From Tubiluchus corallicola (lineage: Eukaryota; Animalia; Priapulida), in contig JAQGDQ010000163.1 in the NCBI GenBank assembly GCA_030141605.1, positions 402,548 through 466,547 on the forward strand: a stretch of 64,000 bases of DNA, written 5' to 3'. Below, piece after piece: positions 29,548 through 35,500 of the stretch. The notes below the pieces were generated by a model. The model did not search any database. It saw nothing but the letters and a program-made list of their open reading frames with translations, and was not told the origin of the DNA. A program made the translations under genes and the position numbers. How positions within the stretch are numbered: the first letter of the stretch is position 1; every line of letters starts with the position of its first letter.

Positions 29548-32500
29548 CTATTCCATCTGATTAGGAGCAAAGTTTAGTGGCACAAAGCTGACTACCTCTT
29601 CATAAATGAGGCCTGAAATGCAACCGATAAACATTTGTGAATACACTAGACTGAAATAAGGATAACAAAGAAAGAGAGGAGAGTTAGAGAGGAAATAGAA
29701 AAGTTACAGGGAATGTAAAGTAAGACAGGAAAGAGCCTGGTCTTCCAGGCAGAAAGTGAGAAGGAAAATAAAGCTGAAGAAAAAGTCCAGCCAGCAATCT
29801 GCTGGGGGAGGGGCAAAAACAAGGACAATCAACAGTGAAAGAATGAAAGCAGACAAGGAAAAAATATGAGGAAAAGTCGGGCAAACAGACGGAGATGTCA
29901 AAATAAATGAAAAATGATACTGAAAATTTAATGAACTACAGGCATCCATTAGTAGTAACTTATTCTGTGACTTAAACCTCCATTCTTAGTAACTTTATCT
30001 ACAAATTATGCTTTTACTCATAGGAACTTTGTCTACAATTTATGCTTCTATTCTTAGTAACTTCATCTACAATTTATGCTTCTACTCTTAGTAACTTCAT
30101 CTACAATTAGTGCTTCTACTCTTAGTAACTTCATCTACAATTAGTGCCTCTACTCTTAGTAACTTCATCTACAATTTATGCTTTCACATTTAGTAAGCAC
30201 AAAAGAATTATGTTTTCGCATATTACTAACTCTAATCTACGACACATTTTTCCATTCTTAGTAAATTTATCTATGACTTATAGACTCTTATAGACTTTCC
30301 ACTCTTAGTAACTTCACAGTCAAACCTCTTTATACCGCCTATTTTGGGGCTGCAAAAAAGTTGACATTAAGCAAGTTAGGTATTGCAACGAGGCACATTA
30401 ATAATACTTACATTTATACGCAAAAATAGACGTTTTGTCAAAAATTTGTCCGTTAAGCCGGGTTAGCATTATAAAGTGAGGCATTATAACAAGGTTTGAC
30501 TATATATAACCCTTTCACTCTTAACCTATAGCTTACGCCTCCATTCTTAGGAAACTTACGAATGGCTTGCACTTACACTCTCAGTAATTTTACTTGTAAC
30601 TTACGCTTTCACTTTTAGTAACTTTATCTATTTCCACTCTTAGTAGCTGTACACATTGCTTATGCTTTCACTCTTAGTAACTTTATGTATGACTTACGTT
30701 TCCACTCTAGAACTGGATAATCCTTGTCCTCAAAGGACTGATCGTACGGCTCGGCAGTTGGTTCATCTGTTGGATCAGCATACTGTTGAAAATATGGATG
30801 AGCAAGAGCCTCCTCGGCTGTGATCCGTTTATCCGCATCCAGCTCCAGCATTTTGCCAAGCAGATCCACAGCTAGAAATACGTATAGCAACTTGTCAAAA
30901 AATTCCATTCAGTTTATAAAACAGCGACTAACTCGTACATTATACATATCTGAATGTTTAACATTTTCATTAAAATCTTTCCTCTTCAAAAGCTTATATA
31001 GTTATTTTAGATTGTGAAAGTAAAAAAATGACCATAATTTAGAAAATGAGCAAGGGAAAAACTTTATATTATTCATGCGTTTCTACGCAAGTTACAAAAA
31101 ATAAACATCGTATACAACACAGACATATATATATATATATATATGTTCGGCCATCAGGTTCTCGCCGCCAAGGTCTTAGCAATCACCTTTGCACAGTTTG
31201 AACCAGTACTATCAGTGGACAAGAGGCCTCGGTTCGAAATCGACATCCTGAAACAGAACTAACAAAGCAAGCAACTGGGACACATTCACCACCTGAGAAA
31301 GAGCGGTATAAGGCCCAACCAAAAGAACTTAGCTTACCCAACTTTGTAAAAACTAGATTATTACTGTTAAATAAAGTTATCTACTCATGACCGAAATATA
31401 CAACTGGCTAAACGTGAAAAACACAGAAAACCAATCTACCCTTGAGAGCCTACCACTCCTTCACATTACGCTGAAACAGTTGGAAGACAAGTCCTGGGAG
31501 GACGGGTGCAGGCTTGTCCTATTTAGCGTTACAAACACCAGCAACCACCGAACTCCAAAAAACAGGATGCAGAACTTGTATTTTTAGACTTGCATGTGAG
31601 TATTCGAATTTAGAGCCAATCGGAATGCGGAATTTATGAATTCCATTCAGGTAAGACTGGTACATTTAAAATGTATAGAGGTATTTTACTTTAACATAAC
31701 TCGAAATAACATGCAGGCCGCGTATCTGTGTCCTTGCGTGAGTGCAAAAGTTTGAATGCAAAACAGAGTGAAGCTCAGCCCCGCAACAATATATGTATAT
31801 ATATATATTCACTTACCATGCTCACTAGCGCCGATGAAGAAATGTGTAAAGTTTTTTCTGGGCATTGTGGGAAGAGATTTGATGTAGTTTCTGGCTTCTT
31901 CACTACTAATCTTCTTCAACAGCTCATCGTTAGGAGTTCCCACAAGTGTCATTATCCTTGTCAACTGATCAATATCTATGCCCCTCGTTAAGATTATTAA
32001 CTTTCATTAATTGACTCACTTCTATGCAATAGATATGGCATCAGGATTAAATGCAAACTGTGTGTCCACACTGTGATACCGTAATAAATACATATTACGT
32101 TAACAATGACAAAATAACAGTTGGAATACTGACAGAAACACAATTTTTAAATGACAAACTAGGTGTGCACATTATTATTGCCATATTTCGCTAGCAATAA
32201 TGATTTATAGCTAAACATTAGGCCAGCTACAAACAAATTTGTCTCTGTTTTCCCTCATGTGCTCAAAAGATGTCAGTAGGAAGGAAGGAAAATTTTTTTA
32301 AGCTTTGTGAAGGTTTAAAACTGGGAATATTTAAAATCAGTTGAAATCGAGGTTTGTTTATTTCTAACTGGTTAGCAGTAATGTTATAAATTTTTCCAAT
32401 GCTTATTTCACGCTTTGTTTTTTAGTTTTTTGTTTTGTGTTAGTAAATTATCATATAATTGTTGATTACTGTATATACGTACGGTGCGTTTTAGCCTCGA

Positions 32501-35500
32501 ATTCGAGAAACACCATCATACACAATGGCAACTTTGGCCGAGAGTTAGCCACAGAAAAACATGGCTGCCTCCTTGCCGAAACAGCAATGTTATAAAAATT
32601 ATTGCATTTTATGTTTTACATTAAAAAATATGCTTTCATGAACTTACAAAAAATGATAAAATTCCCGGCTAGGTGTGCAATAAAAAATGTTACCCAGGTG
32701 GTCAGATGGAAACAGAAGTATTTAAGGCGTTACCTTAAAATTACACTTCATTTCTGGACACCCAATAGCTATCACACTAACATTATATGGTGTAGTGCCT
32801 ATGCTTGCTAAAATTTCAGGCGCATCAATCAAATCAAGCTGCACATGCTGTCAAATCAAGCAGTTAATACAAAAAAGTGGAAAACGTGTAAAAAACAATA
32901 GGCTTGCTATTTATAACACTAAAATGCTGAGTAACACTGCACAACCATAAACTCATTATAAACATGCCCTAATTCACTGATTAAAGCCATGCAATGCAGT
33001 TACTGATCTAACTAAAGTTACCAAGGATACGATCACTTCCTGGAAATAAGGTTTTTCCTGTAAGCAATTCAGCCATGATGCAGCCTACAGACCATATATC
33101 AACTAAAAACAAAGCAGAATGACTAATGTTAATAATAAAGTTAGTCAAACAAAAGCGTAAACTATTGATAGGCTAACATACACTGAAACACTACAAGTCC
33201 CGTAACTTCACAGTAGTTCTTTTAAAATTCATTATCAGATTATCCAGAATAAGTTCCAGTGTCATCCGGTAAAATTTTTGTAACGATCCATTCTGCGTTC
33301 GGTATGACTGATAATTCATGCAATACTGAAGGAAAGGAGCACGTAATTAGTTAACGAAGTAGTGAAACAACACAAATGAATTTATAGCATCTCAGAATGC
33401 AACATCTAATACATGCATGCCATCAAGGTTAAGTGTTGAATTGGAAAACAAACAAAGCACAAGACAAGGAGAATGACGCTTACAAGTATCAGACATCCAT
33501 TCTGGAATGTAAAAACTAAAAGTCATTAAGCAATGGTTAAGCAGACAAGAAGCCACATAATGCTACTTGGCAACTTGGTCAATCAATGAGTTAATAAAAC
33601 ATAATGCATTTAATGCTTGTTGTTAATAATAACTAACACATCTATCATGCAACCTTATTACATGAACTTTGGAGACAAGAACATTTATTTCTACTGTCTT
33701 TATATTTCAGTTAATAGGCAAGAACGTAGCACAAACTGCATGTCTAATGCAAGCTGGTGAATTTACCAGTAAGCAGGTAGAAAACATGCATGTAATGTTG
33801 TCTGCTATACTATACTGCTAAGCAAAAAAAAAACAAAAAAAAAACAAAAAACATCTTGTGTAAAAACTAGTATGTCAGGTGAGCAGGTACCAGGTTATTA
33901 AACTGATCAATTTGATGAGTAAATAATAATGTCTTAGGTAAATAAAATTACTACTGTTAACCTTTCACAAAGATCTTACACGACAATGTCAGCCAGCACA
34001 GTAAACAAACAAATAACCAAATAACTGTGGGTAAAACATGGTTTCTTGTGGCATACCAAGTTCTGAAAGCATCCCAAAGGAATGAAGGAACCCAAAAATT
34101 GTAAAATTTCGTCTTGTCTCAAAAATAATTAAACAATAAAGAGTGGGACCTGAAGGATACAATCAGTTCCGGGAAACAAAGTTCGTCCGGAAAGTAGCTC
34201 GGCCATTATGCAACCAACAGACCAGATATCCACTGAAAGACAAGCATGTGTTTTACATCGAAACTTAAAAATGTGGAAGAAATTGTTGTTGTTGTTGTTG
34301 TTGTTGTTATCTTTCCACTGTAGCTAGTGTTCTGATGAAAAAGTAATTAAAAAAATGAAGTTAAAAAGCATACAGCAGATTAAACTACTTAGTACCTAAA
34401 AAGTTAAGACAAAAAAATCAACAAAAATAAGTACACTAGTATATGATCTTGCTTTGTACAAAGGTGTAATATATTATTAGCCCACATGTTTGTGACTTGT
34501 GTGCTATCAGAAGCTACCTACTGTACTAGATCATACCCCTTGACAGTCACACTTGTGAAATTATGCATTTTTTGTGAAATAATCACAATCTTATTTTTTT
34601 AATTATCGTTGCCCATTGTCGCAATTACTTTTGGTATTAATATGGTGTAAGAAAGCAGCCCTATAATTGTAACGCTAATTGTAGTTGTCTCTCAACTAAC
34701 TACAGCTACTACAGTTTAGAATACTCACGTGTTTGACTATAATGCATCCAGTTTAGCATGACCTCTGGTGCTCGGTACCACCGCGTCGCTACATAACCTG
34801 TCATTTCATCGTCTGTGTGTCTAGCGAGACCAAAATCAAGAATCTAAACCCAACAAATTTATAACATTCGATTACTATATGACCTAGCAAGCAGGACACA
34901 TTGAACGTTTAGCCAAAAAACATAAAAACAACCTAATACACAAATAATCTACTAAGCATTCACAGAAAAATAACTGTGCATCTGTACCGCTCTACTTGTG
35001 CACTCATTGCACACACACACATGCACGCACGCACACATATAACTGCCTTAATCACTGTGGTTAGTATATAACAAACTCTCCCCAGGTTAAAGCAACTAAT
35101 GGGAAAAATAGAATATTGCAGCAAAAGTTGCTTAGGGGTGATTTGGATGATGACAAGCTTAACTGTGGCATCACCACCAATAATACAAAACTTCAATTTA
35201 AAATTTTAAAATGTCAATTTTAAAATTTTAATCTCCTTTACCTTTAATTCACAATCCTCATTAACGGCTATATTACTGGGCTTTAGATCCTAAAAACAAT
35301 AAAAAAGAACAATTAGCCAATAATGGAAAGTAATAAAAAAATGATCAAACTAGCCTCATCAATAAAACGTGTCATGTATTTGTAATACTAATTCATTACA
35401 TAATACGAAAAATTTGACGCAAACATGTAGCACAAGCAGTAAATTACTACCAACATGCCATAAAATTCGCCCCAAAATTGGCACATAAAAGATGTTTCCT

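Follow-up and report, generated by a model that had tools for sequence, protein, structure and literature searches.

Only a handful of genes are known to splice exons in a mutually exclusive way through incompatibility of the two spliceosomes, all of them vertebrate in the accessible literature. In JNK1-3 (MAPK8/9/10), the homologous 72-nucleotide (nt) exons 6a and 6b come with two U2-type acceptors, two U12-type donors and one U12-type acceptor, so the intron between them is a hybrid (U12 donor, U2 acceptor) that "cannot be properly spliced", and the two U2 acceptors compete (Chang et al. 2007, PMC1874599; review PMC8329584). TMEM87A/B, unrelated genes of mammals, have the 72-nt mutually exclusive exons 11/11a ahead of a minor intron, arranged as in Mapk9 (PMC6717393, Olthof et al. 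2019). The p38-alpha gene MAPK14 is listed among tandem-duplicated exon events (PMC8373072) and has a U12 intron (PMC8883539). Here, we analysed 64,000 nt of the priapulid Tubiluchus corallicola (GCA_030141605.1, contig JAQGDQ010000163.1, positions 402,548 to 466,547 of the forward strand; hereafter the window), in which a p38 gene carries two tandem copies of the homologous exon, 7A and 7B. Its layout probably limits each mRNA to one copy, and this would give two 360-residue kinases with four differences, one of them Tyr versus His where a U12-type intron interrupts a codon.

The gene occupies the minus strand from 43145 to 29548, has 10 exons and encodes 360 residues with either exon 7 copy (Table 1). 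A preliminary description, made from the sequence alone, had called it a TGY-type p38, and this assignment holds: the activation loop encoded in exon 6 is TGY, and P0003, a 360-residue Logan protein that is 96–97% identical to the window gene exon by exon, matches MAPK14 structures (E 1e-189). A TPY loop is the hallmark of JNK, and JNK identity was ruled out by the TGY loop and by exon 7 copies that average 15–16 of 23 residues identical to JNK against 19 of 23 to p38.

The two copies lie exactly where they had been placed and, with 72 nt each, are identical at 54 of 72 bases; both are phase 1-1, with AG on the 5′ side and GTATCCTT on the 3′ side. Both donors match RTATCCTT at 8 of 8 positions and are, as proposed, perfect U12 donors. 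No other RTATCCTY site exists on the window's minus strand (the plus strand has 3), and the probability of ATCCTT following both GTs by chance is ~1e-7; the remaining eight donors of the gene are ordinary U2 donors that match GTATCCTT at only 3–5 of 8 positions. Beyond the exons, the likeness of 7A and 7B stops about 14 nt into the acceptor side and 8 nt into the donor side. Acceptors were scored with a branch-site matrix trained on 39 homologous exon-8 acceptors from the fetched loci and compared with 64 exon-7 U2 acceptors. The exon 8 acceptor comes out at the top of the gene's 10, with 4.4 bits (above 94% of the 64 exon-7 U2 acceptors) and a pyrimidine fraction of 0.35. The acceptors of 7A (−5.7 bits) and 7B (0.1 bits) both fall within the U2 range, in agreement with the U2 type first ascribed to them, and the GACTAAC branch reported ahead of 7B is found at 33146-33140. 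By these predicted sites, the intron between the copies is a hybrid, its donor of U12 type and its acceptor of U2 type, as in the JNK-type cassette.

Both copies appear to be maintained. The proportion of differing synonymous sites between 7A and 7B is 0.77 and that of replacement sites 0.066 (Fisher p 3e-7); because synonymous sites are saturated and replacement differences few, the pair behaves as tandem homologous exons of equal length and phase that are under purifying selection. One 348-nt contig (contig 11 of the set X2, which consists of contigs added by species label and guessed to be RNA, with one contig at the exon 7 site) joins exon 6 to 7A at 34729/34232 and 7A to exon 8 at 34161/31975, with GT..AG ends, skips 7B and continues into exon 9, so that both of the 7A junctions named for checking in the preliminary description are present. 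P0003 has a single exon 7 segment, with the 7B state at 3 of 4 diagnostic sites, and its owner probably carries both exon 7 copies, since these are 25% apart in bases, far above the distance of the relatives from the window. Splicing of 6-7A-8 was thus seen once, and that of 6-7B-8 we infer. Relatives were gathered by exon 8 and P0003 queries; among 24 p38 pairs from 10 clusters, none had a difference of the 7A/7B type, proteins with the 7A segment not having been sought directly. In one of these pairs a single exon-7 residue differs, and annotated isoform pairs differ elsewhere; the Mytilus trossulus p38 forms X1 and X2 (P0025 and P0158) show seven clustered differences at residues 153-165, suggesting an alternative pair of exon 5. 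Another contig set, X1, differs from the window over 33181-35085 at just 2 of 573, 0 of 602 (13 gaps) and 1 of 559 positions, and elsewhere at 11–16 per 318–565 nt. This low divergence may reflect conservation or a shared haplotype, and no inference was drawn from it.

Considering the predicted sites, the U2 donor of exon 6 could pair with either exon 7 acceptor, and either exon 7 U12 donor could pair with the U12-like acceptor of exon 8. By analogy with JNK, and given that spliceosomes do not mix sites, joining 7A to 7B would be disfavoured, as would joining exon 6 directly to exon 8 (U2 donor to U12 acceptor). Spliceosome incompatibility is, in our analysis, the best explanation of the presumed exclusivity. 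Inclusion of both copies would give 385 residues and omission of both 337, in frame and stop-free in either case, and with a 1,058-nt spacer between the copies neither decay nor steric hindrance can keep 7A and 7B apart; both were ruled out as enforcers. The choice would then be one of U2 acceptors, and 7B would probably be the default, as 6b is in JNK2, because its pyrimidine tract is richer (0.82 versus 0.65 for 7A). Four TGCATG motifs lie in the hybrid intron, where shuffled sequence gives 0.5 (P 0.001) and the gene's other introns would predict 0.74 (P 0.007), and the matching intron of a related locus, L020, holds three (P 0.002). TGCATG is the RBFOX motif, and such sites might favour 7A in some tissues. 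YCAY (Nova) density is flat over six introns, with no excess; the hybrid intron differs in both respects from that of JNK.

To place the gene among its relatives, a motif made of the exon end and the U12 donor was run on metagenome contigs (63 of 64 parts), a sample that is redundant and skewed towards a few hosts. It matched 112 stretches, of which 89 were MAPK exons (66 distinct: 7 JNK-like and 59 others, two of them fungal-looking). Of the 112 loci, 89 thus show a U12 donor after the homologous exon, as the motif itself demands. The intron had been called ancient, and this is borne out by U12 donors at the identical codon not only in p38 but also in JNK and in a MAPK of TEY type. The last of these, L079 (472-641, plus strand), is nearest to fungal MPS1 and ERK structures and combines a U12-type donor with a branch-like CTTAAC at the same codon; the presence of the intron in a TEY-type, fungal-looking MAPK indicates that it is common to MAPK subfamilies.

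The upstream exon is multiplied in 2 of the 32 distinct p38-like loci that span exons 6-7, with two copies in L007 and three in L020, so that duplicates of this exon do occur in other invertebrate p38 genes, where it had been suggested to look for them, and the layout is not unique to the window. As in the window gene, a U12 donor follows each copy and the His copy comes last, and L020 has a single U12 acceptor downstream of its copies. Both loci, known from sequence alone, depart from the window gene in their AT-AC introns, their two or three copies and their much more diverged extra copies, which give Asn at the His228 position; one extra copy of L007/L020 lacks the Trp of the DxWS motif. 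A further diverged exon 7 segment is annotated in a p38 of Lamellibrachia satsuma (P0195) and may be an alternative copy chosen by the gene model.

On the other side of the intron, the downstream 80-nt exon is duplicated in 4 of the 15 distinct loci that span exons 7-9 (L017, of bivalve type; L023 and L029, of insect type; L046, of fish type) and additionally in L030, with three copies, and in L048, again of fish type. Isoform pairs with this duplication are annotated in Dreissena, Mercenaria, Parasteatoda and Neodiprion, and overall it occurs in bivalve, insect, crustacean, chelicerate and fish p38s. The downstream duplication that the preliminary description ascribed to vertebrate p38-alpha is therefore recovered in the p38alpha-type fish loci L046 and L048, and it is not special to vertebrates, being present in bivalves and arthropods too. 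This MAPK14/invertebrate cassette is built on the same U12 intron, with a mirror-image incompatibility expected. Unlike it, the window gene has one exon 8, and the intron that would bound the 80-nt exon is lost: exon 8 is uninterrupted after its first 80 nt, whereas the intron is present in all 15 other loci spanning exons 7-9; three JNK-like loci with exon 8 also lack it.

The vertebrate JNK mechanism, as recounted in the preliminary description, is in print (PMC1874599). With the JNK cassette the window gene shares the homologous 72-nt exon and the set of two U2 acceptors, two U12 donors and one U12 acceptor, and it differs from JNK in being a p38 (TGY) of an invertebrate. The order of the copies, Tyr first and His second, is also that of L076, a JNK-like locus among the matches that we take, from its residues, to be of the JNK2 type. 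Whole-codon differences between copies number 3 of 23 in the window p38 and 8 of 23 in L076, and the hybrid intron is 1,058 nt long in the former and 228 nt in the latter.

Our observations are in line with a broader but tentative view, which we hold as possible and somewhat short of probable, that one ancient MAP kinase U12 intron has repeatedly given rise to mutually exclusive exons, on either of its sides. The upstream exon would have multiplied independently at least three times (in vertebrate JNK, in this p38 and in the AT-AC p38 genes of L007/L020), with the His copy last and the new copy altering the split residue, to Tyr or Asn, at a docking pocket. If such convergence on a single codon is real, it would follow from the minor intron, next to which any duplicated exon would be exclusive from the start. 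That orthologous genes duplicate exons repeatedly is well documented (PMC9741552, PMC3342872). The duplication of exon 7 most probably took place in p38 itself and separately from JNK, given that both copies are of p38 type (up to 22 of 23 residues shared with p38 exons and at most 17 of 23 with JNK exons) and that the JNK pair has been dated to vertebrates (PMC4494069).

Several observations weigh against the exclusivity of 7A and 7B or against its proposed origin and parallels. The RNA nature of X2 is a guess, and a comparison of its two spliced contigs with the window gives 36 mismatches in 531 exonic bases, which points to another population or species as their source. The 6-7B and 7B-8 junctions occur in no contig of this species, X2 having no cover over 7B. 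Since T-G-K/R..D-H is the ancestral state, P0003 could reflect a relative with a single exon of ancestral type. The exon 8 branch site is weak among U12 acceptors, at about the 26th percentile, and 13 of 49 AGs inside the hybrid intron equal or exceed the exon 8 acceptor in score, the best being 33516 with 8.1 bits. TGCATG is not enriched in the hybrid introns of L007 (1, P 0.26) or L076 (0), and its excess in the window comes from a post hoc test of two motifs. Agreement with JNK in His/Tyr is a low bar, because exon 8 fixes two bases of the split codon and only His, Tyr, Asn and Asp are possible there. Finally, none of seven approximately unbiased (AU) tests rejects an origin, a grouping with JNK included (p 0.14-0.45).

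One competing explanation concerns age. The duplication could be old and shared with the p38 genes of L007/L020 rather than separate, which we consider rather unlikely. Extra upstream copies in 2 of 32 loci would fit a shared event, as would the best named matches of an L020 exon, which are annelids (78–79%), beside a quick p38 tree that puts P0003 with Lingula and annelids, weakly (Shimodaira–Hasegawa-like approximate likelihood ratio test 88). In an exon tree of 72 columns 7A and 7B are not nearest neighbours, although even the JNK control forms no clade in the free tree, and a grouping of 7A with the L007/L020 copies is not rejected (p 0.445). On the other hand, those copies are far more diverged, sharing at most 17 of 23 residues with any p38 exon, they give Asn rather than Tyr and use AT-AC rather than GT-AG introns, the exon is single-copy in 30 of 32 loci (many of them annelid-like by protein matches), and the L020 exon is just 64% identical to P0003. 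The original proposal of an independent, lineage-specific duplication therefore survives in part: an origin within p38, apart from JNK, remains likely, but its restriction to the lineage is weakened by the saturated synonymous sites, by L007/L020 and by the AU tests. The suggested tree of 7A and 7B with p38 and JNK exons likewise returned p38-like residues and no grouping that these tests could resolve.

It is improbable, in our estimate, that the exons are alternative while their exclusivity is leaky or kept by other means, such as RNA pairing, splicing factors or a poison exon. In one such scheme, the 7A donor would be joined to AG 33516, leading through a 32-nt cryptic exon to 7B in the wrong frame, and decay would clear the resulting transcript. 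The candidate cryptic exon spans 33515-33484 on the minus strand (or 18 nt from AG 33502), with a strong U12-like branch before it and a GTAAG donor after it, 32 nt past AG 33516. Together with the 13 high-scoring AGs and the TGCATG excess in the hybrid intron, this lends the idea some substance, and it qualifies the earlier claim that the only U12-type branch and acceptor lie at exon 8, which is correct among the exon acceptors but not across the region. However, 7% of all minus-strand AGs score at least as high as the exon 8 acceptor, no joint at the 33516/33484 sites is found among 15 of 21 joints listed, and no docking-site/selector (Dscam-type) pattern is seen among 25 of 34 inverted repeats, which are short, AT-rich and imperfect.

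We give still less credence to 7B being a dead or unused remnant in a gene that is effectively constitutive for 7A. Only 7A was observed spliced, and X2 depth is absent in the bin with 7B, absence from contigs proving nothing. Against this, synonymous sites are saturated, yet only 3 of 23 whole codons carry a residue change, all of them conservative; moreover, the splice sites of 7B are intact though the flanking introns have diverged, 7B encodes the near-invariant His and the protein of a relative, P0003, is of 7B type. As for one duplication before the p38/JNK split or acquisition from JNK, the same exon, layout and Tyr-then-His order in L076 and the failure of AU tests to reject a grouping with JNK exons (p 0.14-0.28) hardly make it credible against the p38 residues of both copies (mean 19 of 23, versus 15.5 of 23 to JNK), the vertebrate date of the JNK pair (PMC4494069) and the single copy in most p38 loci.

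The preferred reading, one exon 7 copy per mRNA, bears on the kinase itself. The isoforms would differ, in the order 7A/7B, by S/T, R/K and T/S and by Tyr/His at the U12-split codon, a site that aligns to His228 of p38alpha. Among the p38 hits P0001-P0259, 212 of the 215 motif matches have His there and one, a fish MAPK11, has Tyr. The counterpart of His228 in p38gamma, H231, is among the predicted DEF-pocket residues (PMC8577799), and ATF2 binds to the F-site pocket, where helix G begins (PMC7666158, in which His228 is not named). Considering that the site aligns with a predicted DEF-pocket residue and that the F-site pocket binds ATF2, altered docking is a plausible outcome, and the His/Tyr swap may tune the DEF/F-site docking surface. 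The significance of the JNK isoforms has been called unclear (PMC4494069), and no study testing the JNK Tyr/His site was found in the literature searched. What appears to be new is the change between copies at this split codon, to Tyr here (as in JNK2) and to Asn in L007/L020. In a search of mostly open-access literature, main texts only, no report of upstream exon duplication in p38 was found; the supplements of PMC8373072 and PMC9741552 may give dates for MAPK14 events, and MAPK terms are absent from the main text of PMC7954323.

Table 1. Features of the p38 gene and other parts of the window (window positions) and of two related loci (own positions)
Feature	Position	Strand	Basis or remark
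p38 coding exon 1 (start codon)	43027..43145	-	gene model; 37/39 residues as in P0003
p38 exon 2	38281..38410	-	gene model; 42/43 residues as in P0003
p38 exon 3	36490..36548	-	gene model; X2 contig joins exon 3 to exon 4, skipping 433 nt
p38 exon 4	35915..36056	-	gene model; X2 contig
p38 exon 5	35242..35289	-	gene model; 16/16 residues as in P0003
p38 exon 6 (DFG, TGY activation loop, APE), U2 donor GTGAGT	34729..34843	-	gene model; X2 junction to 7A
Alternative exon 7A (S-G-R..T-D; last base T, Tyr at split codon); predicted U2-type acceptor, U12 donor at 34160	34161..34232	-	splice-site scores; X2 contig 11
Predicted hybrid intron 7A-7B, U12 donor and U2-type acceptor, 1,058 nt; TGCATG at 33790, 33651, 33417, 33322; cryptic U12-like AG 33516	33103..34160	-	splice-site and motif scoring
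Alternative exon 7B (T-G-K..S-D; last base C, His); predicted U2-type acceptor, U12 donor at 33030	33031..33102	-	splice-site scores; 7B-type segment in P0003
GT-AG U12-type intron 7B-8; branch-like CTTAAC from 31992, branch A 12 nt from intron end, purine-rich tail	31976..33030	-	branch matrix
p38 exon 8, 159 nt	31817..31975	-	gene model; X2 contig
p38 exon 9	30698..30871	-	gene model; X2 contig
p38 exon 10 (to stop codon)	29548..29612	-	gene model; 20/20 residues as in P0003
CEP78-like leucine-rich repeat (LRR) protein, long reading frame	47047-45521	-	88% to a Logan protein, next matches 33-37%
NUDIX hydrolase, long reading frame	6043-5372	-	uninterrupted frame
F-box/LRR protein, long reading frame	52206-53252	+	uninterrupted frame
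Long terminal repeat (LTR) retrotransposon gag-pol-like frames, broken into several	60634-55098	-	reading frames
L020 exons 6-8	about 1615-3544	+	three exon 7 copies
L007	about 40-2669	+	two exon 7 copies

Elsewhere in the window, the CEP78-like, NUDIX and F-box/LRR frames are apparently intronless within an intron-rich region, the LTR element is presumably Bel/Pao-like, and exon fragments at about 19739-22111 on the plus strand resemble what we take to be a nucleostemin/GNL3-type GTPase. Tandem repeats lie in p38 intron 9, near 30700-30000, and a short repeat with the first 26 bases in common occurs at 1236 (+), 38248 (+) and 49638 (−), one copy edging p38 exon 2. Rfam gave no matches within 26500-44000.

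Against the very few, vertebrate examples of spliceosome incompatibility, a p38 gene whose duplicated exon lies, as in JNK, before the intron, together with L007/L020, suggests that the arrangement arises repeatedly. It also leads to a testable idea, namely that exons beside minor introns are duplicated and retained more often, exclusivity being free. Moreover, with four differing residues, 7A and 7B would form a near-minimal natural pair for the effect of His versus Tyr at p38 position 228 on substrate choice.

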